The position numbers were made by a program, and so were the translations under genes. The notes under the pieces were generated by a model. It saw only the letters and a program-made list of their open reading frames with translations, was not told the DNA's origin and did no database searches. From a virus, in the IMG/VR virus record IMGVR_UViG_3300038758_000056: a stretch of 44,187 nt of DNA, one strand, 5' to 3'. The stretch's first letter is position 1; every line of letters starts with the position of its first letter. Shown piece after piece: positions 4,363-40,405 of the stretch.

Positions 4363-4749
4363 TTATAGGTCTTTAATCTTTTCCTTATAAACCTCAATCA
4401 TTTGTTTCAGCTCGTCATTGGAAAACTTTACCGTTTGATTTGAGCGCAATAACAATGCGTCTGACGAGCCTTCTCCGTACCGTTGGTCTAAGTGTATGCT
4501 AAACTTGAATTGCTCGCCCTGATTGAAGATATTGCATTTTTTACATTGCGTTCCACAATTTTGCTCGTCCCATCTTGTGGCGTATTTACCTCTCGACATG
4601 AAATGACCGCACTGTAAACTCTTCCATTGGTCAACCTTTCCGCAAGTAACACACTCAGCGAAGCCGTCCAGGTTAGCGTCTCTCATTCTTATGTAGATTG
4701 AAAACACGCGGTCAAGTTCGCGAACAAGTTTAGAACGGGTCTTAGCCAC
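4363..4749 (-). CDS. ninG: NinG/Rap-like recombination protein
   Basis: LDRVFSIYIRMRD...CVTCGK...LQCGHFMSRGKYATRWDEQNCGTQCKKCN matches the lambda NinG family signature. Confidence 0.8.
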   Translation of the reverse strand: MAKTRSKLVRELDRVFSIYIRMRDANLDGFAECVTCGKVDQWKSLQCGHFMSRGKYATRWDEQNCGTQCKKCNIFNQGEQFKFSIHLDQRYGEGSSDALLLRSNQTVKFSNDELKQMIEVYKEKIKDL

Positions 4750-5643: not shown

Positions 5644-5777
5644 TTTGATTTGATCTTAATATTAGGCGTGAACACCAAAGCCCACAGAGGCCAGCCCGTC
5701 CCAGTAATGTAGATTCCCAAGCCAATCACGCCAAAGAATAGCCCGTAAAATGATAGTGAGATTATCGCGTTTTTCAT
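5640..5777 (-). CDS. Small membrane protein, 45 aa
   Basis: Manual translation MKNAIISLSFYGLFFGVIGLGIYITGTGWPLWALVFTPNIKIKSK. ATGA overlaps with both neighbours. Confidence 0.45.
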   Translation of the reverse strand: MKNAIISLSFYGLFFGVIGLGIYITGTGWPLWALVFTPNIKIKSK

Positions 5778-6409
5778 GCTAATACGATTGCCATTAGTTT
5801 CTCCTCAACGTCTTTACTTATCTCATAACCTTCCTTTAGTTTGGTCATTGAGCCAGCACCTTTGAGATACTTGATGCACTCATTGTACTTAGGGTGGTTG
5901 GCTGTTAAGACTTGCTTTGCTTTCGCTTGTGGGGTTTGAATTTCGTTAGAGTGTGTTGTCTCTGTATCGTCAATTTTCCCAACAGGTGTAAGGAATGTAT
6001 AGAGTAGAGCGTTTTTCATTGCGTAAGTTGTCGCCTTTCCCGCTCCCTTATCTTGCGGATCAACCCCGTGCCCGTATCCGCAAACGACTATTGATTGACC
6101 GCTTACGTGGTATAGATTATACTTAACTACAACCTTTGTAAACACAGACTGGAACATCTTAGTATCCTTTGGCGTTGATTTGCTCCACGGGTCTACACCC
6201 TCCCACCTATCAACCTGAGTTGACTCTTCAATGTCAAAAGGTATCATTGCTAGACCATGCTTAGATAGTGCGTCATTAAATACCTCTTTAACGTCTTGGT
6301 CTTTTGTTCCGTTGTAGGCGTTTTTGGAATTGCCACCAACGCGGCTGTTTTTTTCCATTCCCTTTACTTCTTTCATTACCGAGTTAACGGCTGTTATTAG
6401 TTCTTTCAT
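5774..6409 (-). CDS. erf: ERF-family single-strand annealing protein
   Basis: N-terminal pattern VMKEVKGMEKNSRVGG..AYNGTKDQDVKEVFNDALSKHGL resembles the ERF superfamily. Sits next to the SSB-like and NinG genes. Confidence 0.55.
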   Translation of the reverse strand: MKELITAVNSVMKEVKGMEKNSRVGGNSKNAYNGTKDQDVKEVFNDALSKHGLAMIPFDIEESTQVDRWEGVDPWSKSTPKDTKMFQSVFTKVVVKYNLYHVSGQSIVVCGYGHGVDPQDKGAGKATTYAMKNALLYTFLTPVGKIDDTETTHSNEIQTPQAKAKQVLTANHPKYNECIKYLKGAGSMTKLKEGYEISKDVEEKLMAIVLA

Positions 6410-7802: not shown

Positions 7803-8018
7803 TTAGTTCTGAGAAGCCGTTATCTGCTCCTGCTGTGCCTGATACGCTAACAACTCATCAGTATTAGCGCACGTGTCGAATATCCCATCCACTTGGTCTC
7901 TTAGATTGCGATACTTGTAGTGCATCCAGATTAAAAGGCAAAGACCTATAAAACTGAATAGCAGGACTACTAGGTTGATTATCAGGATTATCGTTATGAT
8001 AAAAACAACCTCACTCAT
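7803..8018 (-). CDS. Small membrane protein
   Basis: One long hydrophobic segment (VVFIITIILIINLVVLLFSFIGLCLLIW). 4-nt overlap with the upstream gene. Confidence 0.6.
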   Translation of the reverse strand: MSEVVFIITIILIINLVVLLFSFIGLCLLIWMHYKYRNLRDQVDGIFDTCANTDELLAYQAQQEQITASQN

Positions 8019-9046
8019 CGAATCTTGCCGTCAATAATCGAAAGGTTATCAACTTCAAATTCACCTTTTTCATCTACGTAAACAAACGCAAACCCGTGAT
8101 TCCACTTATTAACGGGCATGTACTGAGGGTGCATCTCACAAAGACAACCAGTAGACCAAGTTGTAACTACCTTACCTTCCATATTCTTTTCAGTATGGCT
8201 AGACGTTTGGTGATTGTGTCCACAGATTACTGTAGTCTTTGACCTCATGTAGTAACCTCGTGCTGGATTAACAGGACTAAAGACAGACCGCCCGAACTCG
8301 TGGCCGTGCATGATGTTCAGTTTACCAGCCTTTATGATCCGCTTATCCTGTATTAGATCACAACCCAGCTCACCAAACCTTAATAAGGTGTCTAAGGTGA
8401 ACTCAGGCGCGCCCAATAACTCAGGCGCTTTTGATCTCATGTAAGCCTCATACCTTTCTTCATGGTTGCCAAGTTTGAAGTAAAAAGGAACTCCAGGAAA
8501 CTGCTCTCTAAAGACCTTTAAAAGCTGTCTGGTGGCTTCTAACTCTTCTGCGAATCTTCGCTTTCGTGGGTCTTTTTCGTATCGAGACAAGGCGTAACAG
8601 TCCACCGTATCGCCATTGAATACAATCGCGTTGGCTTTCTTTTCCTTTCCGTACTCAATCGCTTTCGTAATTGCCTCAATATTATGGTATGGTACGTGAA
8701 TATCAGAAAGAAGTAGGATTCTAGTACACGCTTTTGGCAATACATACGCATCCCATTCGTCCTCATCTGAATCAGGTAACCCGTAGGGGTTTGGTATGCC
8801 TAAAGCAATAGCCGCCTCTGCTCTTTTTGTTGTGTGCGACCTATCTGATAACTTCTCACGAAGTTCTTTACCCGATTGACCCTTATAGTATCTAAGCCTA
8901 GCACGAACATGCTCAACATCTCGAAATACCTCTGGATTCTCTTTATAGATTAACTTAGCTAATGACTTAGTAGGGGTGTTCTTCCATCTTGAATCATTAA
9001 GATATTCTAAGATAGTCTCACCTGATACTGTTCGTTTTCCTGCCAT
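8015..9046 (-). CDS. Calcineurin-like metallophosphoesterase
   Basis: Motifs LLLSDIHVPYH, NGDTVDC, GNHE, GHEF, CGHNH in the canonical order. Confidence 0.8.
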   Translation of the reverse strand: MAGKRTVSGETILEYLNDSRWKNTPTKSLAKLIYKENPEVFRDVEHVRARLRYYKGQSGKELREKLSDRSHTTKRAEAAIALGIPNPYGLPDSDEDEWDAYVLPKACTRILLLSDIHVPYHNIEAITKAIEYGKEKKANAIVFNGDTVDCYALSRYEKDPRKRRFAEELEATRQLLKVFREQFPGVPFYFKLGNHEERYEAYMRSKAPELLGAPEFTLDTLLRFGELGCDLIQDKRIIKAGKLNIMHGHEFGRSVFSPVNPARGYYMRSKTTVICGHNHQTSSHTEKNMEGKVVTTWSTGCLCEMHPQYMPVNKWNHGFAFVYVDEKGEFEVDNLSIIDGKIR

Positions 9047-10634: not shown

Positions 10635-10886
10635 TTATGGACGCTAAACACCTACACCCGAACGATGCACTGACAGAGCATGTGTTTTTATCTGATGTTG
10701 GCAAAAACGAAGTGTCGTTTTAATGTTTGCCAACGGTTTGATAAGTGGCGCGATAGTGGCATTTATCACAGGTTGACGGAAATTGATTAATTTTGTACCA
10801 ATGACACCACTACAGATACTGGCTATTATCATGACGGCTTACGTCTTGGGGAGCATTGCGTATGAGTGTCTTAAATCGAGGCGGTA

Positions 10887-20066: not shown

Positions 20067-20151
20067 TAACTGAAGAAAGAACTGAGCCGTAAAATTACAC
20101 AACTGCGGCCAAATCTCACTACGCGAGTATTTAGCCATGTGTTGTATTTAA

Positions 20152-20499
20152 TTAACCCCCCCCTCGCCAATCTCTGTTGTGCTTACTTAATACCTCTCTT
20201 CCAATTTTTCTCACGGCTTCACAATCTTCACCCTGCATTTTTAGTCGTGCTATTGGTGTGTCAAAGTACCCCATTAGGTTATGTATGCAATCCAGTAATT
20301 CCTTATCGGGGTTTAACTCCGTTCGTTCCTCACTTAATACAACATCAGCTAAAGCATCAGAATTAACTTGTTCTAGGCGGTCGCAGTATGCTTCTAGTTC
20401 TTTTACAAATCTCATAACATCCGAAATAGGCACATTTGTCTCAACGCCTTTGTCAGTCACTTTTGGCTTTCCGTAATATTCTAGTTTTGGTCGTTTCAT
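20152..20499 (-). CDS. Hypothetical protein
   Basis: ORF; ends in a G8 run on the sense strand. Confidence 0.6.
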   Translation of the reverse strand: MKRPKLEYYGKPKVTDKGVETNVPISDVMRFVKELEAYCDRLEQVNSDALADVVLSEERTELNPDKELLDCIHNLMGYFDTPIARLKMQGEDCEAVRKIGREVLSKHNRDWRGGG

Positions 20500-23920: not shown

Positions 23921-24469
23921 ATGGGTTGTACTAATTACAACTGCTCTGATATTTCTCCACAGGTATTGAATGATTGCGGTAATCCGCTAGAAGGTGGGTT
24001 TGACCAAGCTGTAGTCTTTGACTGCGATGCTACGACAACCGACTTCACTAACGGGATTACGATAGCGGCTGATATAGCTGCGGGTCGAGCAATACTCTAC
24101 AAGAACATCAAGGCAGGAATCGAAGCAGCTTCTCCGAATGAGATAGACGTTATGGTAGCTGGTCAAGAAGCACGGGCCGTCAACTATTCGCGTACTGCGA
24201 CTTGGGTTGATGCGAACGTGAACACTTCGAGTTCGGCAGCTTATGACACCTTGGATGCAACTTCTGGAATCACAGCTAAGGCCGTGTTGTTTCACCTCGC
24301 AAGTGGTGATAACGCTGTTTTGGTTGATCCTCCAAAGGGAGCTATCTTCAAAGGTGGATTGATTGTACCAAATGACACTTCTGACGCGGCTCGTTACGAG
24401 TACACGGTTGCATGGAAAGACCCAAGCAACCCTGCGATTCAGGCAGTGCCATCAGGCGTATTCTCATAA
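23921..24469 (+). CDS. Virion structural protein candidate (possibly the major tail protein)
   Basis: 182-aa ORF with its own promoter box and a strong terminator. No tube gene is visible beside the chaperone. Function inferred only. Confidence 0.3.
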   Translation: MGCTNYNCSDISPQVLNDCGNPLEGGFDQAVVFDCDATTTDFTNGITIAADIAAGRAILYKNIKAGIEAASPNEIDVMVAGQEARAVNYSRTATWVDANVNTSSSAAYDTLDATSGITAKAVLFHLASGDNAVLVDPPKGAIFKGGLIVPNDTSDAARYEYTVAWKDPSNPAIQAVPSGVFS

Positions 24470-24493
24470 GGAGTTGAGCGATCGACTTTGAGA

Positions 24494-24519
24494 GGGCTGG
24501 CTTATTGCTGGCCCTTTTT
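24494..24519 (+). terminator. Intrinsic terminator
   Basis: GGGCTGGC - ttatt - GCTGGCCC (8 bp including 2 G-T pairs) followed by TTTTT. Confidence 0.7.
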
Positions 24520-24584
24520 CGTTTGCTACAACTGCCGCTAAATTCCATGCTACGCACGTCTATTTAGCGAGGTGTTGGCGGTAA

Positions 24585-24950
24585 TTACTCCACCAACTTA
24601 GCTATGTAAGTATTTTTATCTTTCCAGCCATCAGCATACTTTTTAGCGTCATCAAGTGTTTCAAACTTGTTGCTAAGTTGTATCATGCCTTCAACCCCTT
24701 CGTCTGAACCGTCTTCAAAAACAATGTAACTACCGCCAACAATGGGTATAGCACATATTTTTACTACTTCATCGAGAAAACTATCAAAGTCTTCTTCCAA
24801 AAGGGCGTTGGTGTGTTTGCTTGTTCCGCTTGGATAAGTGCTTTTTACTTTATCCCAAAGTGCTAGTTTCAATTTATCTTTCATGTTATTTAATTTTAGT
24901 GTTTCAATTCCGTAAAAATACGATGCCATACCCGAAGCCGTTATATGCAA
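24585..24950 (-). CDS. Hypothetical protein (true start probably the ATG at 24884 or 24929)
   Basis: The ORF-track start is a TTG lying inside the conserved intergenic element. Internal Mets give MKDKLKLALWDK... Confidence 0.55.
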   Translation of the reverse strand: MHITASGMASYFYGIETLKLNNMKDKLKLALWDKVKSTYPSGTSKHTNALLEEDFDSFLDEVVKICAIPIVGGSYIVFEDGSDEGVEGMIQLSNKFETLDDAKKYADGWKDKNTYIAKLVE

Positions 24951-24953
24951 TGG

Positions 24954-25502
24954 CTACCATCCGTCCATCACATAGGTGATTTTACAATCACCCACAAAGC
25001 CTTTTTGGTAGTGTAAACATCCAACGGGGAAGCCAAATCCAAATCCGTGTTTACTGCCTCCGCCCATATACACTATCTCTTTTAACCCACCGTATTCAAG
25101 CACCATCTTTTGTACTTTGTTGCTTTTAAAGGCTTTGGCTATCGGCACAAAGAACACAACATTGTCAGCAATAGAAAATGCCTTTTGAAGAAAGTGGTCA
25201 TAAATACTGTAAGGTGGGTTTGTAATTATCCAATCTACTTTCTTATCCCAATCAAAGAAGTCAAGTCCTTCGTCAATTTCACATCTGTATTTATTCTCGC
25301 TTTCAAATAAATCGTAAAAGGCATTTTCCCCAGCAGCAGGTTCTAAAATTGAGCCTTGTGGTTTAAAGTAATCTACAATCCATTTTGCTGTTGTGTTTTT
25401 AGTAAACACTCTGTCAGCAGCAGTAGCCGTCTTTGTCTTATTCGGCTTTGTTGGTGTTCCATTTCTTGTCATAATTTCATTTTTAATTAACCGCCACAGC
25501 AT
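24954..25502 (-). CDS. N6-adenine DNA methyltransferase, gamma-like class (start probably the ATG at 25472)
   Basis: Motif I ILEPAAGENAF and motif IV IITNPPYS. Confidence 0.8.
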   Translation of the reverse strand: MLWRLIKNEIMTRNGTPTKPNKTKTATAADRVFTKNTTAKWIVDYFKPQGSILEPAAGENAFYDLFESENKYRCEIDEGLDFFDWDKKVDWIITNPPYSIYDHFLQKAFSIADNVVFFVPIAKAFKSNKVQKMVLEYGGLKEIVYMGGGSKHGFGFGFPVGCLHYQKGFVGDCKITYVMDGW

Positions 25503-25569
25503 ATAACACAGAGTATAAATAACCCTACGGGTCGCTATCGCTTATTCATACCCACGTCCGTTATGCCCC
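25499..25569. repeat. Palindromic intergenic unit U2 (YAAC - L arm - loop - L arm - GTTR)
   Basis: GCATATAAC aca GAGTATAAATAA [19 nt] TTATTCATACCC acgtcc GTTATGCCCC. L arms complementary at 10/12; AAC pairs with GTT. Confidence 0.8.
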
Positions 25570-25571
25570 AT

Positions 25572-26114
25572 TTAAGAAAGCACCTCGAAAACGAATTTGC
25601 TTGGTAATAATTGACTGCATAAATAAATGCTTTTGAATGTAGCACCTTTTTTAATTACACCGTCTTTTATATAGTTAATTCGCTTATCAAAAACCATTAT
25701 TTCAAAAGGATTGTTTTTTAGCATTTCATACCTTTTCTTAGTATCAAATAATCCACTTTCATTTATCAATAAAGCAAATGGTTTGCCTATCAAAAATAAC
25801 CTATCTAAAATCGGTGTTCTTAAACTATATGGTGGGTTGCTAATAATGTAATCGTAATTTTGTGGCTCATATTCAAAAAAGTTTTTACCGTCTTCAATGT
25901 GTCCGTAAATTACAGTATTCCCATTTTCTCGGAGCAACTTTACAAAATTACTTTCTTCTTTATCAAATGGACACCATACAGTTTTATCACTTGGGATGTA
26001 TTTCAATAATGGCTTTATAGCATATTCAAGCGTATAAAATTCGTCTGATTTATTTATTTTGTCTTGTGCAAATTCGTGATTCATAAAATAAAGAATAAAA
26101 ACGGGGCATAACAC
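25572..26114 (-). CDS. EcoRI-methylase-like adenine DNA methyltransferase (start probably the ATG at 26084)
   Basis: SDEFYTLEYAIKPLLKYIP..KTVWCPFDKEESNFVKLL...YDYIISNPPYSLRTPILDRL matches the EcoRI_methylase-type family. Confidence 0.7.
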   Translation of the reverse strand: MLCPVFILYFMNHEFAQDKINKSDEFYTLEYAIKPLLKYIPSDKTVWCPFDKEESNFVKLLRENGNTVIYGHIEDGKNFFEYEPQNYDYIISNPPYSLRTPILDRLFLIGKPFALLINESGLFDTKKRYEMLKNNPFEIMVFDKRINYIKDGVIKKGATFKSIYLCSQLLPSKFVFEVLS

Positions 26115-26237
26115 ACGGTATAAAAAATTGGGGCGTGTGTAGTTTCCCGAAGGTTAATACTATTATTTATCATTGTGGCGGTGCGAAAGTTTATCTCTTT
26201 TAATCCCCAACTTTTCATACCGCAAAACGTTAGCTGC
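26103..26237. repeat. Palindromic intergenic unit U5
   Basis: GGGGCATAAC aca CGGTATAAAAAA [84 nt] TTTTCATACCG caaaac GTTAGCTGC. L arms complementary at 10/11. Confidence 0.75.
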
Positions 26238-26448
26238 AAGCGAGTGGTCGCCAAGCAATACATTCAGCAAAAGGCATATCGTCATCGTAAAATTCGCAAA
26301 CACTACCGTCATCAAATAGCATTTCAAAGTTTTCGCCCGTAGGCATTTCAATTAGGTTCACTTCGTTTTGCTCACCTTTGATAAATCGCCAGCAGCTAAC
26401 ATCCGCTACAGTGCATGGCTGTTGGTTGTTTTCTGATACTGTACTCAT
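26230..26448 (-). CDS. Small acidic hypothetical protein
   Basis: ORF rich in Asp/Glu (EFYDDDMPFAE). Confidence 0.55.
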   Translation of the reverse strand: MSTVSENNQQPCTVADVSCWRFIKGEQNEVNLIEMPTGENFEMLFDDGSVCEFYDDDMPFAECIAWRPLACS

Positions 26449-26507
26449 AATTCAAAGTTTATTTTTGTTTAGATGCGTTGTTGAAAGCCACGCACCATAG
26501 CTTTTAC

Positions 26508-26545
26508 GTTGTATGCCATTGAAACGGTACGCTTCGCCATACAAC
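26508..26545. repeat. Closed GTT...AAC hairpin: GTTGTATG - 22 nt - CATACAAC
   Basis: 8-bp perfect inverted repeat read directly. Same end motifs as the gene-bracketing arms but with nothing inside. Confidence 0.7.
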
Positions 26546-26565
26546 ATGGTATATAAGCAAAAAAC

Positions 26566-26808
26566 TTAACTACCATTCTCCTTTTCATTAAGGTACTCGA
26601 AATAAGAAAGGGCAGCCGTGAATGAACACCAACCTATTTTCTTACCAATACCCTCCCAAACTGCTTTACAATAAGTCATATCATTTCCATACTCATTATC
26701 GTTCCACCTTTTTAATTCTGCTTCTATGGTCGGGATATGCCCTTGTGCTTCCAAACCAAATACTACTTTAAGCCCTTTCTTTTCGACTTCTTCAAATAAT
26801 TCTTTCAT
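26566..26808 (-). CDS. Hypothetical protein
   Basis: ORF in the accessory island. Confidence 0.6.
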   Translation of the reverse strand: MKELFEEVEKKGLKVVFGLEAQGHIPTIEAELKRWNDNEYGNDMTYCKAVWEGIGKKIGWCSFTAALSYFEYLNEKENGS

Positions 26809-26864
26809 AATTTATCCGTTAAGTTTTCTACTCATATACCTGTCTGTTGGTAGTAATAGTTTTG

Positions 26865-27068
26865 CTATCTATTAACTTGATAAATAGCTATTGCACCAAT
26901 AGAGGTAATAGCACCTTCTATCGCTACTAAAAACCTAATGTTTTGTTCCCAATTTGCAAAATTCATTTCAAGCAATACAAATGCATTTCCTAGATACCAA
27001 ACCGCAAAACCACATACTACCAACAAAGTATAAAGTGCATAGCTTTTAAGTGTTTTAATTATGTCCAT
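26865..27068 (-). CDS. Small membrane protein (2 TM)
   Basis: Two hydrophobic segments: YALYTLLVVCGFAVWYLGNAFVLL and FLVAIEGAITSIGAIAIY. Confidence 0.6.
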   Translation of the reverse strand: MDIIKTLKSYALYTLLVVCGFAVWYLGNAFVLLEMNFANWEQNIRFLVAIEGAITSIGAIAIYQVNR

Positions 27069-27126
27069 TTTTTTTATTTAAGTTATTTTTAATTCAGTTA
27101 TTCGTGCTGTTTAGGTCGCTACGACA

Positions 27127-27153
27127 CCTTATACAAACCGTTACCCACAATAC
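27127..27153. repeat. Half unit (L arm CCTTATACAAA - cc - GTTACCCACAATAC) 3' of gene 27164..27691
   Basis: Carries the left arm of the 13/14 inverted repeat whose partner is at 27725..27738. Confidence 0.7.
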
Positions 27154-27163
27154 TACGTGAGTG

Positions 27164-27691
27164 CTACCAATTGAATTTTTCAGCGTTTAAGTAAACTTGT
27201 GTGTGTATTCTTCTTTGATTGACATTTATAGTGGTTGGGTGTATGAACTTCTTTGGTATTACACGAATAAAACACCTCCAAGTATGTTCATTACTCATAA
27301 TACCTCTATGTAAATCATTTTGAGTGAACGTATGCCATTTCTGTTCTTCTTTAAAGTAGTTGTTTCCCTCCTTATCTTTGTATTCTGTTAGCGGAGGGCC
27401 ACTTAACCACATATACATTTTCTCGCCTGTTATACCTCTAAAATCTCTTTTCAAGTTTTCATCTCTTGGTACAAAATCTCTGTGCCAATTTGGAATACAA
27501 GGGAATTGCTTCGGCATAAGCATATGTATTTTTACATCAACTGCATATTCCTCTTTAGGTAATTCAAGTAGTCCAGATTCCAACAACTCGTTTATTATAG
27601 GTTCTACTTCGGGCATTAATTCTATTGTCTTTTCAAACGAGCAAAGCATAACTCCATTTGTACTTTTACTCCAATCAATATTATGTTTCAT
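27164..27691 (-). CDS. Hypothetical protein with HxD...H motifs (possible Fe(II)/2-oxoglutarate dioxygenase or cupin-like fold)
   Basis: NWHRDFVP ... NDLHRG ... WRCFIRV could form a facial triad plus Arg. No confident family match by eye. Confidence 0.3.
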   Translation of the reverse strand: MKHNIDWSKSTNGVMLCSFEKTIELMPEVEPIINELLESGLLELPKEEYAVDVKIHMLMPKQFPCIPNWHRDFVPRDENLKRDFRGITGEKMYMWLSGPPLTEYKDKEGNNYFKEEQKWHTFTQNDLHRGIMSNEHTWRCFIRVIPKKFIHPTTINVNQRRIHTQVYLNAEKFNW

Positions 27692-27724
27692 TATCTGTTT
27701 TTTTAAATTTTATACTAAAAACCC

Positions 27725-27769
27725 GTACTGTGGGTAACACTAAATATACCCCATATTCCGTTGCACTAC
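27725..27769. repeat. Short palindromic unit U1
   Basis: GTACTGTGGGTAAC acta AATAT accccc... ATATT cc GTTGCACTAC. AAC pairs with GTT, and the AATAT/ATATT arms pair. Confidence 0.6.
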
Positions 27770-27821
27770 ATACGGTGCATATTCTCAACGTTGTGTCTTG
27801 CTTAGTTTCGCGCAATATACT

Positions 27822-27829
27822 TAAATTTG
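27822..27829 (+). promoter_or_regulatory. -7 box TAAATTTG placed 4 nt before the ATG of 27834
   Basis: Perfect TAnnTTTG; head of the packaging/head operon. Confidence 0.5.
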
Positions 27830-27833
27830 CAAT

Positions 27834-28736
27834 ATGGCAAAAAAGCAAAGAGGGATTTTACTTTTAGCGTTCGGAGCTAAAGGTTACGCAGAGTTGGCGG
27901 CTAATCTAGCTTACTCACTCAAAAGACATTCAAATGTTCATATTACTTTAGCGGTTCAACCCGACTTGATGGACTACATTTTCGCAGAGGATTACCAATA
28001 CTTCGACAATATCATCGACCTCAAAGAAGATGACTACATGAAGGATGGAAAGGTAGACCCAGCACGTGCTAAAGTTCGTATCTATGACATAGGCTCAAAG
28101 CTATACAAGGAGTTCATCTATTTAGACGTTGACGCGCTTTGCTGGCATGACATCGAAGGGCTATTCACTCAATGTTCTGAAAGTGAGAAGTATTACATCA
28201 CAGACGTTAAGGGAGTTGGCAGTCAGGACGAGGTGGTTAATTACTCAATCTGGGCTAAGAATGAGGACATTACGGAGTTCTTCGGATTGAAAAAGAAAGA
28301 CAAGATAGTAGCGATTCAATCGAGTTGGTGCTACTTCAAGACGTGTCCAGATACTAAGAAGTTCGCAACCGAGGTTAAGAAATACTATAACAAGGGCTTC
28401 GACCTATTGAAACTGCAAGAAAAGTGGGGCGGTACGTTACCTGATGAGCTTATCTTCTCAGGTGTGCTTTCTAAGATGGGTTTAGACGCTTCTCACGAGT
28501 TCTACCCTGCTCCTATACACTTTGGCAACCATCACCCTAAAAAGGGCATGACAGAGCTTGCGGAGGATTCTTACCTATTGAGTGTTTACGGGAATGGCAA
28601 CGGCCAAACGCTTACCAAAGTCGCCTATTTAGAGTATTACGACAGGGTGTTGATTCAATGGAAAAAGGAACACGGTCAGAATCACAAGTACAAGATAGGT
28701 CAAGCGAACAAGGATAAACACGCTAATAAGCATTGA
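27834..28736 (+). CDS. GT8-like nucleotide-sugar glycosyltransferase
   Basis: GILLLAFGAKGYAELAANLAYSLKRHS ... KEFIYLDVDALCWHDIEGLF (DxD), as in family 8 enzymes. Confidence 0.45.
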   Translation: MAKKQRGILLLAFGAKGYAELAANLAYSLKRHSNVHITLAVQPDLMDYIFAEDYQYFDNIIDLKEDDYMKDGKVDPARAKVRIYDIGSKLYKEFIYLDVDALCWHDIEGLFTQCSESEKYYITDVKGVGSQDEVVNYSIWAKNEDITEFFGLKKKDKIVAIQSSWCYFKTCPDTKKFATEVKKYYNKGFDLLKLQEKWGGTLPDELIFSGVLSKMGLDASHEFYPAPIHFGNHHPKKGMTELAEDSYLLSVYGNGNGQTLTKVAYLEYYDRVLIQWKKEHGQNHKYKIGQANKDKHANKH

Positions 28737-30025
28737 TTAAGCTATTAGAGGTCTACAAGCCTGCTTGGTTCACATCTAAACGGTATGTGATAAAGGTAGG
28801 TGGTAGAGGCGGTGGAAAGTCTCACGATGAGGCTTACTTTCACGTTATTAAGTGCCGTCAACCCGAATACTACAGAGGGGTTTTAGTTCGTGAGATTCAC
28901 GGATCAATCAGAGATTCCCAGTTTGCTGAAATCAAATCAGCAATAGAAGCACTTGACATCGGTAACGAGTTCATCATTCGTGAAAACACGATGGAAGTTG
29001 AGCATCGTATCACAGGCAACAAGATACTAGCTAAGGGTTTAAAGAAGTCGAGCAGCCACGAGGTCGCCAAATTCAAGTCGATTAAAGACCCTACGCACGT
29101 ATGGTTTGAAGAACCGACCGAAACAACTAAACCAGACTTTGACCAGGTTGATGAATCTGTAAGGACGTTAAAGAGCGATGTTCTTCAAATTCGCATGACC
29201 ATGAACACCGACATCGGCCCTGACCATTGGATTCGTAAAGAGTTCTTTGATGTTGAGCGACCAGATGCAGAGATTGTTTGGAGTACCTACCTTGATAATC
29301 AAGTAAATCTATCGCCTTCGTTCATCGCTTTGATGGATAGAATGAAAGAGACGGATTTCGAGAGGTGGAAAGTAACCGCTATGGGGGGATGGGGAAAGCG
29401 GGACGTTCAAAACCCTTTCGCTACTCAATTCGACTATTTAAAGCACGTTAAAACCTGTTCTTATCAGCCTCAGAAGGTTCTGCGTATCAACTTTGATTTC
29501 AATATTTCGCCTTTCGCTATTACGTTTTCCCACTTCTGGAGGGATAAAGAAGGATACCACCACCACACGTTTGACGAAGCAACGATTGAAGACGGGACTA
29601 TTGACAAGGCTTGTGATTACATTCTAAGCGCGTATAAGCCTAGTTTACCTACCTGTGTTATTCACGGGGACGCTTCGGGCAACGCTAGGCAGTTAAGCCA
29701 ACGCGATCACGCTAATCTTTATAAACTGATTGAAAGGAAGTTAAATCTAAGGGGTAGGCAGTTCAAAATAAAGAAGTCAAACCCTAGACATACTAACTCA
29801 AGGAATGACGTTAACTATTTATTGATGCACTTCCCAGACCTGAGAATAAGCCCCGATTGCCCTAATCTGATAAGTGATCTGGAAACGGTTGAGGTGAATG
29901 CAGAAGGTAAGATAATAAAGGCCCAAAGAACTAAGAAAGAACAAAGGGCCGACCACTTAGATGCGGCTCGTTATGATTACGATTCAACTGAACTTAATGA
30001 TTGGATTGCTAACCATCAAAGATAA
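28733..30025 (+). CDS. terL: Terminase large subunit
   Basis: Walker A KVGGRGGGKSH, Walker B-like HVWFEEPTE, C-terminal nuclease-like region. TTG start overlapping the GT8 stop (TTGA). Confidence 0.85.
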   Translation: MIKLLEVYKPAWFTSKRYVIKVGGRGGGKSHDEAYFHVIKCRQPEYYRGVLVREIHGSIRDSQFAEIKSAIEALDIGNEFIIRENTMEVEHRITGNKILAKGLKKSSSHEVAKFKSIKDPTHVWFEEPTETTKPDFDQVDESVRTLKSDVLQIRMTMNTDIGPDHWIRKEFFDVERPDAEIVWSTYLDNQVNLSPSFIALMDRMKETDFERWKVTAMGGWGKRDVQNPFATQFDYLKHVKTCSYQPQKVLRINFDFNISPFAITFSHFWRDKEGYHHHTFDEATIEDGTIDKACDYILSAYKPSLPTCVIHGDASGNARQLSQRDHANLYKLIERKLNLRGRQFKIKKSNPRHTNSRNDVNYLLMHFPDLRISPDCPNLISDLETVEVNAEGKIIKAQRTKKEQRADHLDAARYDYDSTELNDWIANHQR

Positions 30026-39682: not shown

Positions 39683-39729
39683 GGTGTCTGCTTCGGGTTT
39701 CCCTCAACCCGCGCAGCCCCGCTAAAGGC

Positions 39730-39759
39730 CGTTGCGATCATTAAAACGGATCGCTAACG
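39730..39759. repeat. Closed GTT...AAC hairpin: CGTTGCGATC - 9 nt - GATCGC(t)AACG
   Basis: 10-bp stem with one bulge, in the convergent intergenic region. Confidence 0.65.
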
Positions 39760-39765
39760 TTCCAT

Positions 39766-39795
39766 AAAAGGCATGGCGAAAAGCCACGTCCTTTT
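39766..39795. terminator. Bidirectional intrinsic terminator between convergent units
   Basis: AAAAGGCATGGC - gaaaa - GCCACGTCCTTTT. A-run on one side and T-run on the other. Confidence 0.65.
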
Positions 39796-39816
39796 ATCGA
39801 GACGTTGTGCGCAATA

Positions 39817-40065
39817 TTACCTACTACGCATATCTACACAAGCAATAATAGCGGTTTTAGTATGGTAAACATAAATTTGCCACTCACTATTACCCGTGTT
39901 GCTTTCTTTAACCCAAAGAACACCATGATACCAACCTTCTTTCTTTTCTGCCATATATCTCTCTTCAAATTCTATGGCTTTCTGTAATGCTTCGGTTCTT
40001 AAAAAACCGCTATTAGCGTCTGCTTTTATAATTATTTTTTTCATATAAAAATAAATACTGCGCAC
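39817..40065 (-). CDS. Hypothetical protein (start probably the ATG at 40044)
   Basis: The ORF-track start is a GTG lying inside the inverted-repeat arm. MKKIIIKADANSG... from the ATG. Confidence 0.55.
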   Translation of the reverse strand: MRSIYFYMKKIIIKADANSGFLRTEALQKAIEFEERYMAEKKEGWYHGVLWVKESNTGNSEWQIYVYHTKTAIIACVDMRSR

Positions 40066-40195
40066 AACATTGTATATAAATCAGTGGCGTTGTACGTCTT
40101 TTTAACCACTTTTAGCTGTTTAATTTAGTTTAAGCGTGTCGGCAATCTTACAGCTATTAATCGCCACCGCTTCATATACTTAACCGTTAGCGGTA
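40054..40195. repeat. Palindromic intergenic unit U4
   Basis: AATACTGCGCACAAC att GTATATAAA [90 nt] TTCATATAC ttaacc GTTAGCGG. L arms complementary at 8/9. Confidence 0.7.
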
Positions 40196-40405
40196 ATTCT
40201 CCCAATCAATACCATACTTCTCACAAATTTCAATTGCATCTCTACCAATTATTCCAACTGTTGAGCCAGCATAATCTTTTCCCCAACGTTGAGCAGCAAC
40301 TACTATTACCCTTTCAATTTTTAAGGGCAAAGAACTACCGCTAACATCGGCTATAAAATCATTGCCGTTTTCGTGATTATTCAAAGTTTTTTTCTCTTTA
40401 TTCAT
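40187..40405 (-). CDS. Hypothetical protein
   Basis: ORF in the accessory island. Confidence 0.6.
   Translation of the reverse strand: MNKEKKTLNNHENGNDFIADVSGSSLPLKIERVIVVAAQRWGKDYAGSTVGIIGRDAIEICEKYGIDWENYR

Follow-up and report, generated by a model that had tools for sequence, protein, structure and literature searches.

The window, meaning the whole 44,187-nt stretch of viral DNA analysed here (IMG/VR record IMGVR_UViG_3300038758_000056), carries a main array at 24574-27789 and a second array at 39725-40345, the parts of which are collected in Table 1. Their cargo comprises two DNA methyltransferases, a phrog_1843 protein and several small ORFs, and the main array ends in ...CGCCAAC/ACCTCG, where the slash marks the boundary. 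The original prediction described three of the genes as each bracketed by an inverted repeat of its own, with one arm 0-15 nt past the stop codon and the other 10-35 nt upstream of the likely ATG. These repeats and distances were recovered, and on the minus strand each pair extends to 15 positions. Four pairs with the same signature had been overlooked (26400/26229, 24740/24574, 40345/40186 and 40068/39804), and the window holds seven signature-bearing arm pairs, all on the minus (coding) strand. One segment of the main array, 26543..27139, departs from the standard layout of a unit: its 80-aa gene lies between the arms of a 23-nt inverted repeat (26818-26840 with 26548-26570) with the opposite polarity.

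Table 1. Units, spacer hairpins and arm pairs of the two arrays in the window.
Feature	Coordinates	Strand	Details
Short spacer hairpin 5' of first unit (tentative)	27739..27789	-	Read from sequence; preceded by ...ACAAC/; AATATGCACC pairs with GGGGTATATT, one G·T included; weakest of the spacers
Cassette 1	27140..27738	-	5' arm 27724-27738; gene 27164-27691 (175 aa, phrog_1843); 3' arm 27140-27154; arms of 10 bp, G·T, then 3-4 bp
Irregular segment, two small genes	26543..27139	-	26865-27068 (67 aa); 26566-26808 (80 aa)
ORF-less hairpin unit	26508..26545	-	GTTGTATGGC, g, 16-nt loop, t, GGCATACAAC; GTT...AAC stem, position 11 G opposite T, loop without gene
Spacer hairpin	26401..26507	-	Stem GCTATGGTGCGTGGC with GCCATGCACTGTAGC, 15 bp, three G·T pairs on minus strand; loop contains ATG (26448) of 72-aa ORF
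Short cassette, 172 nt	26229..26400	-	5' arm 26386-26400, within ORF 26230-26448; 3' arm 26229-26243, overlapping the stop codon
Spacer hairpin of MTase-B unit, 116 nt	26113..26228	-	
Cassette MTase-B	25560..26112	-	5' arm 26098-26112; gene 25572-26084 (EcoRI-type N6A methyltransferase, phrog_799); 3' arm 25560-25574
Short spacer hairpin of MTase-A unit, 52 nt	25508..25559	-	
Cassette MTase-A	24940..25507	-	5' arm 25493-25507; gene 24954-25472 (phrog_799); 3' arm 24940-24954; arm position 10 T·T, position 11 G·T
Spacer hairpin, 199 nt	24741..24939	-	Stem GGGTATGGCA.CGTATTTTTAC with GTAAAAATATG.TGCTATACCC; loop contains start (24887) of 100-aa ORF
Last short cassette, 167 nt	24574..24740	-	5' arm 24726-24740; 3' arm 24574-24588
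Short cassette, 160 nt (second array)	40186..40345	-	Arms 40331-40345 (within ORF 40187-40405) and 40186-40200 (at its end)
Spacer hairpin, 117 nt	40069..40185	-	
Cassette, 75-aa gene	39804..40068	-	Gene 39817-40044; arms 40054-40068 and 39804-39818
Trailing short hairpins after last AAC	39725..39803	-	One with conserved loop CGTTTTAATG
Arm pair, cassette 1	27738->27724 with 27154->27140	-	GTTACCCACAgTACG with AGTAtTGTGGGTAAC; inverted repeat 14 nt, 93%
Arm pair, MTase-B	26112->26098 with 25574->25560	-	GTTATGCCCCgTTTT with TAAAtGGGGCATAAC; inverted repeat 19 nt, 84%
Arm pair, MTase-A	25507->25493 with 24954->24940	-	GTTATATGCTgTGGC with GCCAtTGCATATAAC; inverted repeat 15 nt, 87%

The 15 positions of an arm are composed of GTT and seven further pairs, a G opposite T at position 11, and four more pairs, and the mirror arm ends in ...AAC. 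Positions 1-10 and 12-15 are Watson-Crick in 94-100% of cases except for position 10 (77%), all four pair types are seen, and the pairing ends abruptly at position 16. At position 11, G·T accounts for 57 of 62 cases and Watson-Crick pairs for none; most scans demanded G and T at this position and instance counts depend on that filter, while the bias itself is real, as shown by a scan without the filter and by an anchored test. The stop codon mostly falls within or beside the inner portion of the 3' arm.

As had been claimed, the arm pairs are genuine and occur far more often than chance would allow. The strict signature matches eight times in the window, seven of them on the minus strand, against 0.096 on average and never more than 2 in 500 local shuffles, and perfect 10-nt inverted repeats bracket 3 of 63 genes, compared with 0.3-0.8% per gene under two null models. 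When sites were chosen by spacer sequence alone, 47% had a partner arm no more than 3 kb away that formed 13 or 14 of the 14 possible Watson-Crick pairs, versus 0.4% in a control with arms swapped between loci, and G stood opposite T at position 11 in 42/42.

The spacers between the cassettes are themselves hairpins with a stem of ~20 bp, mostly 116-122 nt in total (about 118), and shorter forms have 40-85 nt. Each arises from pairing of the 3' flank of one unit with the 5' flank of the next. Many spacer loops hold an ATG whose ORF reads across the stem, and spacer identity is ~95% between unrelated contigs. The 116-nt spacer of the MTase-B unit and the unit's own arms fold into one continuous hairpin: as single-stranded DNA, arm, spacer and arm joined as in a circle give -24.6 kcal/mol (z -3.65), versus -14.9 kcal/mol (z -0.54) in the array context. 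For MTase-A, the corresponding values are -15.3 kcal/mol (z -3.9) and -7.6 (z -0.8).

Hundreds of like elements are present in IMG/VR phage contigs, in cultured Flavobacterium and Polaribacter phages and in Bacteroidota chromosomes. Nine isolates of Lillamyvirus, a Flavobacterium phage, are 99.4-100% identical in their shared sequence (at least 99.8% among the nine genomes retrieved) and differ by whole units (spacer hairpin, arm, gene, arm), which are present, missing or moved, the upstream spacer travelling together with its gene. In four isolates, for example, a 320-nt unit follows cassette D; in lillamy9-7 it comes after the last cassette. The indel junctions in these phages number more than eight; each lies exactly after ...RTAAC, with 7-12 identical bases in common, and both junctions of a unit lie within the conserved (R)TAAC. 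Gain and loss of genes as units with breakpoints at the AAC end supports the cassette reading of the original prediction. The same is true of compensatory substitutions in the arms, which are seen in the MTase-B homologous cassettes of contigs L004, L006, L022, L023 and L143. Their arms read GCCCC/GGGGC in the window and GTGCC/GGCAC in L004, L006 and L143; L023 is of the latter type, with the 5' arm only seen, and L022 has a TCCCC 5' arm and a 3' end beyond the contig. Unrelated genes are also enclosed by identical spacer and arm frames, for which simple whole-unit mobility is insufficient, and a cassette-genesis or second-crossover step is therefore needed.

A Xer/IntI-like tyrosine recombinase is encoded in 11 of 120 bacterial 8-kb loci that were found by spacer sequence alone, and at loci with detected cassettes it lies mostly within a few hundred nt of the array. 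Two homologues picked blindly on long Flavobacterium contigs were each followed by an array of 8-9 cassettes, and phage contigs with a recombinase homologue also have arrays. The enzyme lacks the IntI-specific insertion, scores below integron-integrase cut-offs and is named in databases only as 'XerD' or 'tyrosine-type recombinase'. No recombinase match was obtained in the window, in the Lillamyvirus array regions or in the other viral loci collected before the recombinase search. The predicted lack of such enzymes in this genome is confirmed for tyrosine recombinases (recombinase search, Pfam and PHROG scans), and no serine recombinase was found among the ~45 larger ORFs scanned.

The arms are probably the boundary repeats of mobile cassettes, belonging to an integron-like, DNA-level system that is native to Bacteroidota and also found in their phages. 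A unit on the G·T strand runs from a spacer hairpin through GTT and the 5' arm, one gene, and the 3' arm ending in AAC. Once excised as a circle, it would have its own 3' arm joined to its own spacer and 5' arm, and as single-stranded DNA it may form one long hairpin made of the 15-position arm stem, a small internal loop and the spacer stem. This hairpin would be the recombination substrate, like the folded bottom strand of attC in integrons. Each gene would have its own co-varying inverted repeat because selection for arm pairing acts on the circle and not on the array. The G·T at position 11 and the other fixed non-Watson-Crick pairs of the spacer stem would let one strand fold better than its complement, thereby marking the strand that reacts. 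The most likely enzyme is the Xer/IntI-like tyrosine recombinase that adjoins arrays in Bacteroidota chromosomes and some phage contigs; as the window has none, it would have to come from the host or a co-resident element and act in trans. By means of such cassettes, common to Bacteroidota and their phages, single genes would be gained, lost or moved as units.

The turnover of units could also come from homology or microhomology, without a site-specific enzyme, if spacers and RTAAC/GTTAY cores served as short homologies for the phage's own proteins, of which the window encodes Erf (5774-6409), NinG/Rap (4363-4749) and an SbcD-like phosphoesterase (8015-9046) that would act as nuclease. The similarity of spacers between unrelated contigs, the bases common to each junction and the virulent phages without recombinase fit such a route, and a precedent exists in T4-type phages, where conserved intergenic stem-loops (PeSLs) flank small accessory genes in hyperplastic regions with modular gene shuffling (PMC2839356, PMC4122927). 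PeSLs resemble the present elements as stem-loop modules beside small accessory genes in virulent phages, tied to gene shuffling, but they are direct repeats serving as homology and have no cassette-specific inverted arms, crossover core or associated site-specific recombinase. We consider this explanation unlikely, since it neither needs nor maintains cassette-specific complementary arms that have a constant G·T and end sharply at 15 positions, and since moving one unit to the end of the array, with junctions exactly after AAC, requires excision and reinsertion. The specific tyrosine recombinase adjoining the arrays and the conserved strand asymmetry also stand against it.

This asymmetry bears on a role in RNA as well, which was the other reading originally offered: the flanks of each transcript would pair into a stalk of ~15 bp that is processed by RNase III or another nuclease, or that stabilises or regulates a monocistronic mRNA, with the conserved G·U as a recognition feature. 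Of 99 cassettes in viral contigs, 91 have their ORF on the G·T strand, so that the transcript would hold the G·U form of every stem; the stop codons within the 3' arm, the A/U-rich leaders after the 5' arm, and the ORFs starting in spacer loops, which could couple translation to unfolding, would also suit an RNA function. However, in bacterial genomes 141 of 166 cassettes have the ORF on the other strand (141 antisense versus 13 sense), and their mRNAs would have A·C at position 11 while the asymmetry is still conserved, which assigns it to the DNA site and not to the mRNA. No Rfam family matched, and pairing of transcripts leaves the gain, loss and relocation of units after RTAAC and the association with a recombinase unaccounted for. 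The processing stalk is thus disfavoured, and RNA structure as the explanation of the arms is quite improbable, though it may play an additional part in phages, where the G·T strand is also the mRNA strand. The integron-cassette reading is supported.

IS608 inserts 3' of TTAC, and non-autonomous single-stranded DNA transposons of the IS200/IS605 or REP/RAYT type, with subterminal hairpins, a Y1 HUH enzyme and insertion 3' of TAAC, would agree with the constant insertion after TAAC, the strand-specific hairpins with fixed mismatches and a target duplication not being seen, but they are very improbable here, as the window yielded no Y1 or HUH transposase and none was noticed beside arrays, the co-occurring enzyme is a tyrosine recombinase, and tandem single-gene units beside one recombinase are a trait of integrons and not of IS200.

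Among known systems, the pdif (Xer) modules of Acinetobacter plasmids are gene modules between inverted sites on which Xer-type recombinases are thought to act. Unlike the cassettes of the window, pdif sites are conserved 28-bp double-stranded XerC/XerD sites with no cassette-specific co-varying arms and hairpin. Integron cassettes, including those of sedentary chromosomal integrons and of CALINs (attC clusters without integrase), are likewise single-gene units in tandem arrays, with one imperfect-palindrome site per unit, outer boxes ending in AAC and GTT, boundaries inside the core, and a strand-asymmetric structure. In both, each site is complementary to the beginning of the cassette it belongs to, which makes the arms co-vary from cassette to cassette, and the ~118 nt site is within the attC length range. 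Bacterial arrays of the present family adjoin a Xer/IntI-family tyrosine recombinase at an attI-like junction (AAC/T...), their sites are homogeneous within one genome, as are Vibrio VCRs, and ORF-less as well as toxin-antitoxin-like reversed cassettes occur. The original cassette reading was essentially right, as borne out by the mobile units, the AAC breakpoints, the compensatory arms and, in bacteria and some phages, the accompanying recombinase, but the sites differ from canonical attC. Where attC has a 7-bp R box, the arm stem here spans 15 positions with an obligatory G opposite T at the eleventh; of 293 arms, only 16 conform to the expected GTTRRRY. The spacer forms a stem of 20 bp topped by a large A-rich loop that is unpaired, and it contains fixed G·T and C·A pairs in place of the bulged extrahelical bases of attC. 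In addition, the hairpin site lies upstream of the phage gene, with the ORF inverted relative to the site, phage arrays combine many site types, and the recombinase is without the IntI-specific insertion.

The closest described case is a CALIN of the virulent Polaribacter phage P12002L, with two methyltransferases and two sites found with attC finders, one of which, P12002L_attC1, was called an attC site by HattCI and was the one site that IntI1 did not recombine in E. coli (Qi et al. 2023, PMC9892861). P12002L_attC1 (TGCTAAC-GG..GGCTAAACGG-TCGTTTTAATG-CCGTTTTAGCC-AT-TGTTAGGCG) is a short spacer of the window's element family, and the loop CGTTTTAATG recurs in it and in a 40-nt spacer of contig L027. 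As the only family member tested experimentally, its failure with IntI1 counts against the integron reading. That study (PMC9892861) describes neither the 15-position arms that bracket genes nor the class of 118-nt spacers, and it does not deal with the turnover of units between isolates, the reversed orientation of the ORFs, the Bacteroidota-wide spread or the associated recombinase. Like the window, the P12002L CALIN has DNA methyltransferase cargo and no integrase in a virulent phage, and it belongs to the same element family as the arrays described here.

The region of interest is taken up by accessory genes in one minus-strand block (27691->24585), with a plus-strand module that ends at 24469 on one side and the packaging genes, also on the plus strand, on the other. 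The three arm pairs of the original prediction are present in it (repeats I22, I5 and I23 of the repeat search) and follow a shared signature, which on the coding (minus) strand reads 5'-GTT, seven paired positions, G, and at least three paired positions, and on the far side of the gene at least three paired positions, T, seven paired positions, and AAC-3'. The G is opposite T in every pair of the window. Seven pairs carry this signature, all on the minus strand and within minus-strand gene blocks, and the stop codon is usually located within the inner portion of the 3' arm. The comparison with shuffled sequence that had been proposed came out clearly, with eight matches to the strict signature in the window against a mean of 0.096 over 500 local shuffles.

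Arm pairs, an ORF-less hairpin and a neighbouring packaging gene in the window
Feature	Position	Strand	Remark
Arm pair	27738/27140	-	
Arm pair	26400/26229	-	
Arm pair	26112/25560	-	
Arm pair	25507/24940	-	
Arm pair	24740/24574	-	
Arm pair	40345/40186	-	
Arm pair	40068/39804	-	
ORF-less hairpin	26545-26508	-	of the same kind as the arm pairs
TerL	28733-30025	+	among the packaging genes beside the accessory block

The closest IMG/VR relative of the window, L001, whose TerL protein is 80% identical, keeps synteny on either side of the cassette block and lacks the whole of it: about 0.9 kb of unrelated, plus-strand small genes with a higher G+C content (L001 7360-8273) replace the 3.4-kb block (window 24470-27866). 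This shows that the cassette block is accessory, and only that. A megablast search of 12 kb of the window against the INPHARED phages gave no match, a metagenome scan with the neighbouring 300-aa protein returned only 37-39% relatives, which are useless for mapping junctions, and Rfam yielded no relevant family for 24.3-28.0 kb at E<=10.

Two small genes without standard arms are found at 26543-27139 (-), one coding for 67 aa with a predicted membrane helix and the other for 80 aa. The latter is bracketed by a 23-nt, 87% inverted repeat of opposite polarity (26818-26840 with 26548-26570), which reads ..CTTAAC gene GTTAAG.., and the two genes could lie inside a giant spacer loop or represent tandem units of one arm type. 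A weaker candidate unit at 20141-20343 (-), with 6/7 core pairs, the G·T and 2/3 extension pairs, surrounds the minus-strand ORF 20152-20499 within a plus-strand module, and could represent either a decayed cassette or a coincidental match. A G+C-rich inverted repeat (24490-24526, GGGCTGGCTTATTGCTGGCCC) with runs of T and A on its sides separates the convergent plus and minus blocks and has the appearance of a bidirectional terminator.

Homologues of the methyltransferases in IMG/VR have like arms with compensatory differences, GCCCC/GGGGC in the window and GTGCC/GGCAC in loci L004 and L006, which is the kind of substitution that had been sought; in L023 (GTGCC) and L022 (TCCCC) only the 5' arm is visible because the contigs end. 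A motif scan of IMG/VR revealed loci with arrays of up to seven cassettes in a row, and where GTT...AAC inverted repeats are perfect over 10 bp, position 11 has G facing T in the overwhelming majority. Cultured phages have such units as well: at least 13 follow one another in Flavobacterium phage vB_FspS_morran9-1, and several are present in Polaribacter phage P12002L.

The spacer between two cassettes is a local hairpin, because the 3' flank of one unit (n) pairs with the 5' flank of the next (n+1). It begins with RTAAC-G-N3-4, continues with a stem of about 20 bp that encloses the loop, and closes with N1-2 and GTTAY, and 45 distinct spacers fold in this manner. The most common length is 118 nt in the viral and bacterial sets alike, and the loop is either about 70 nt long and A-rich, or short with a conserved CGTTTTAATG. 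In this they agree with attC sites, which are imperfect inverted repeats with a conserved outer AAC/GTT core and can form hairpins of roughly 57-141 nt. The non-Watson-Crick pairs of the stem are position-specific and confined to one strand, with G·T in 'TATG/TATA' and 'CAGT/ATTG', and a C·A pair in the 'GGCTT' spacer class. Direct alignment of the stem halves gave 71 G·T against 28 A·C, again at specific positions; the count of G·U pairs in sense versus antisense minimum-free-energy folds was uninformative (168 vs 160). Two other interpretations of the flanks were discarded: TATAY-N5 upstream of the arms is not a promoter or -10 box, being missing in many spacer classes and forming the right half of the spacer stem, and the TATAC/GTATG flanks do not pair across their own gene, since the 3' flank of unit n pairs with unit n+1 instead.

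Many spacer loops hold an ATG, often as 'ACAAATG', with encoded peptides like MSNEEQ... (window 26448->26230, 24887->24585 and 40405->40187, all -; also L027, L035, L056, L083, L116 and L142). The ORF runs through the right half-stem of the spacer and the GTT (in frame, Val) into a short cassette of 160-175 nt, so that part of the coding sequence of these short-cassette proteins would belong to the recombination site. A solo hairpin without an ORF (GTTGGCAAA...CGTTTTAATG TTTGCCAAC-GG) is located between plus-strand genes at 10690-10737 (+); its loop, CGTTTTAATG, is also present at window 39739-39748, in P12002L_attC1, which is a short spacer of phage P12002L, in a 40-nt spacer of L027 and in an empty hairpin of L009 (3581-3610).

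Pairing of the arms was assessed at sites from bacterial genomes that were chosen by the spacer pattern only, so that arm pairing was not presupposed. A partner arm with at least 13/14 Watson-Crick pairs was found within 3 kb at 47% of the sites, compared to 0.4% in the swapped-arm control. The arm helix covers positions 1-10 and 12-15, its variable columns containing each of the four pair types, and stops sharply at position 16; position 11 is G·T in 57/62 and Watson-Crick in none.

A natural experiment that is decisive for mobility is offered by Lillamyvirus, of which about 46 records have a common backbone (99.4-100% identical among the closer records) and arrays that differ. In the nine records examined, units are present or absent as a whole. 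The 320-nt unit F is placed between D/E and G in four isolates, and after the last unit in lillamy9-7. With the caret marking the junction, loss of E gives D...ACATAAC^GCTTTGCAAC, where GCTTTGCAAC is the spacer of F; lillamy9-7 reads M...TTATAAC^GCTTTGCAAC...F...GAGTTATAAC^TACAATATT, and loss of M gives L...TTATAAC^TACAATATT. Insertions of N, O and P+Q, as well as the swap of L and M for R and S, have their junctions at ...RTAAC^ too, as do all of the more than eight indel and relocation junctions among these isolates, which bears out the suggestion that genes come and go as units with breakpoints at the arm ends. The spacer upstream of a gene moves together with that gene. From this junction rule it follows that the mobile unit is composed of spacer hairpin, GTT-arm, gene and arm-AAC, and the crossover is inside (R)TAAC; as with attC sites, crossover falls within the GTT/AAC core and ORF-plus-site units move. 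In lillamy9-7 the relocated F sits at the array end where some phage contigs carry a recombinase homologue, which is where a unit reinserted at a primary attI-like site would be expected.

The same frames occur around different genes. One identical 118-nt spacer with arms GTTATATGCTgTTTT / AAAAtAGCATATAAC accompanies four unrelated ORFs in four contigs, and the arm types GTTATGCCCC, GTTATGTGCC and GTTATAAAAC are each found again with unrelated genes, which rules out gene-specific arms. Arms are absent from the L002 homologue of the 175-aa gene and from several methyltransferase homologues (L009-L021), and therefore belong to the phage or host lineage and not to the gene. Arrays on bacterial chromosomes have a single spacer type each (AAC^gtcccgccggct..., L356 10230-17053 and L357 10216-17681), like the VCRs of Vibrio; phage arrays (L115, L143) mix many spacer and arm types, which suggests that phages gather cassettes from many sources.

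In the proposed mechanism the unit would circularise, with its own 3' arm joining its own spacer and 5' arm. Circular-junction constructs of the window fold as one continuous hairpin. As single-stranded DNA, the construct of MTase-B (cassette 25560..26112, -) folds at -24.6 kcal/mol (z -3.65), and at -14.9 kcal/mol (z -0.54) with the arm of the neighbouring unit; for MTase-A (cassette 24940..25507, -) the values are -15.3 (z -3.9) and -7.6 kcal/mol (z -0.8), respectively. Integron cassettes follow the same logic, with R''/R' complementarity in the circular cassette over 7 positions, whereas in this family the start of the cassette pairs with the R'' box of that cassette's site over 15. This part of the integron geometry in the original prediction stands; the TTRRRY consensus does not, as only 16/293 distinct 5' arms fit GTTRRRY and their consensus is GTTA[T/G]NNGC[A]G.

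The window was correctly described as free of tyrosine recombinases: a profile search of all 235 open frames detected none at E<=10, and Pfam and PHROG scans agree. It encodes Erf, NinG/Rap and an SbcD-like nuclease. The spacer-only pattern matched more than 120 loci, nearly all from Bacteroidota, where arrays are present too, and a Xer/IntI-like tyrosine recombinase is found beside the elements in 11/120 bacterial 8-kb loci, mostly no more than a few hundred nt from the array in those loci with detected cassettes; one of these genes is followed by an SSB gene. The recombinase falls just short of two profile cut-offs, with scores of 211-213 against NF040815 (XerA/integron integrase; cut-off 220) and 190-209 against TIGR02249 (integron integrase; cut-off 265). 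About 57 profile positions (178-255), which are the site of the IntI-specific insertion, have no counterpart in it. An adjacent IntI with the IntI-specific additional domain, a mark of the complete integron, is thus provided neither by the window nor by the recombinase beside the bacterial arrays. Its closest solved relatives are XerA and IntI4, and databases name the family only 'XerD' or 'tyrosine-type recombinase'. In the converse test, two recombinase homologues were picked on long Flavobacterium contigs and each was followed by 8-9 cassettes; these arrays have homogeneous sites per genome and a recombinase-side junction AAC^T.... In some phage contigs the array is immediately followed by a shorter homologue.

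A gene for a single-strand DNA-binding protein lies between recombinase and first cassette in Arundinibacter roseus (L172 3933-4280), and a homologue of it lies beside a recombinase fragment in L197 (2403-2651). This proximity is suggestive, and fits a single-strand hairpin substrate.

The original prediction had also offered an RNA reading, in which the two flanks of each transcript pair into a processing stalk that may be an RNase III substrate. The ORF lies on the G·T strand, on which the stems carry G·T, in 91/99 cassettes of viral contigs, and on the opposite strand in 141/166 cassettes of bacterial genomes. The strand asymmetry is the same in both sets despite the opposite gene orientation, and is therefore a property of the DNA site. 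An RNase III stalk implies a structure selected on the sense strand everywhere, and in most bacterial cassettes the G·T strand is antisense; the RNA reading is thus disfavoured, a processing stalk cannot be the primary explanation, and the stems may have a secondary role in the RNA of phages. In bacterial arrays the ORF is upstream of the site and co-oriented with its top strand, as in attC cassettes; in phage cassettes, including those of the window, this orientation is reversed. By analogy, the G·T strand would be the counterpart of the bottom strand that recombines in integrons, and the cleaved box would be the AAC on the 5' side of the hairpin, a mapping that draws on established integron knowledge.

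One bacterial cassette (L220 923-2507) has three ORFs on the G·T strand, opposite to its neighbours, one of them coding for an HTH_3 protein, and is similar to the reversed toxin-antitoxin/regulator cassettes of chromosomal integrons. In the tail module of P12002L (L144 14622-15197), a plus-strand unit encloses gp24, a gene with a minus-strand annotation; it is either an inverted-gene unit or a mis-called ORF.

IS200/IS605 or REP/RAYT elements are very unlikely, as no Y1 HUH transposase was found in the window and the enzyme beside the arrays is a Xer/IntI-type tyrosine recombinase. The PeSLs of T4 are a functional analogue, but they act by direct-repeat homology; cassettes of this type, with direct repeats, a promoter and a stem-loop, do not match the window, where the repeats are inverted and cassette-specific and TATAC is a spacer half-stem. 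A chance origin of the arms is ruled out by the bracketing-repeat nulls, the swapped-arm test and the local shuffles.

The integron-cassette reading is supported in substance. A wider proposal, to which we give slightly less than even credence, is that Bacteroidota harbor a distinct, largely unannotated integron-like branch, whose recombinase is of the Xer type and lacks the IntI insertion, whose sites are hairpins of about 118 nt, and whose arm stems span 15 positions and always include a G·T. Under this proposal their virulent phages keep arrays of the same sites with inverted genes and, with a recombinase borrowed in trans, shuffle methyltransferases and further accessory genes, which probably serve in counter-defence, from phage to phage. 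If so, identical frames around unrelated genes bear on the origin of cassettes, an open problem of integron biology, and would expose the long-sought cassette-making step. The cassette reading itself offers a concrete mechanism for the gene-by-gene turnover of accessory genes in virulent phages, already seen in otherwise 99.9% identical isolates, with DNA methyltransferases countering restriction and small unknown ORFs as the cargo in the window. It connects the accessory regions of phages with cassette arrays on the chromosomes of an entire phylum, and it points to a generically labelled family of Xer/IntI-like recombinases. Flavobacterium phage-host pairs in culture make excision, the choice of the G·T strand and cassette origin directly testable, and the sharp signature can be used by annotators to delimit cassettes in Bacteroidota phages and genomes.

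Bacteroidota integrons in general are on record; literature searches turned up no account of sites of this class, of arms with 15 positions, of the inverted orientation in phages or of the association with the recombinase, and the Flavobacterium phage paper does not mention the repeats. Qi et al. (2023; PMC9892861) reported 'CALINs' in virulent phages; one of these phages is P12002L, with two methyltransferases. P12002L_attC1, called by HattCI in that work, is a short spacer of the family described here, and was the only one of six phage sites without IntI1 recombination, with no attC x attI1 recombinants (PMC9892861). A CALIN is defined by two or more attC sites called by the attC covariance model or HattCI, with no intI nearby; of the family described here one member, in P12002L, has been called by HattCI, and the window has no integrase. 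The system departs from canonical integrons in the R-box consensus, the IntI-specific domain, the ORF orientation in phages and recombination by IntI1, and is therefore filed as an integron-like system and not as a canonical integron.
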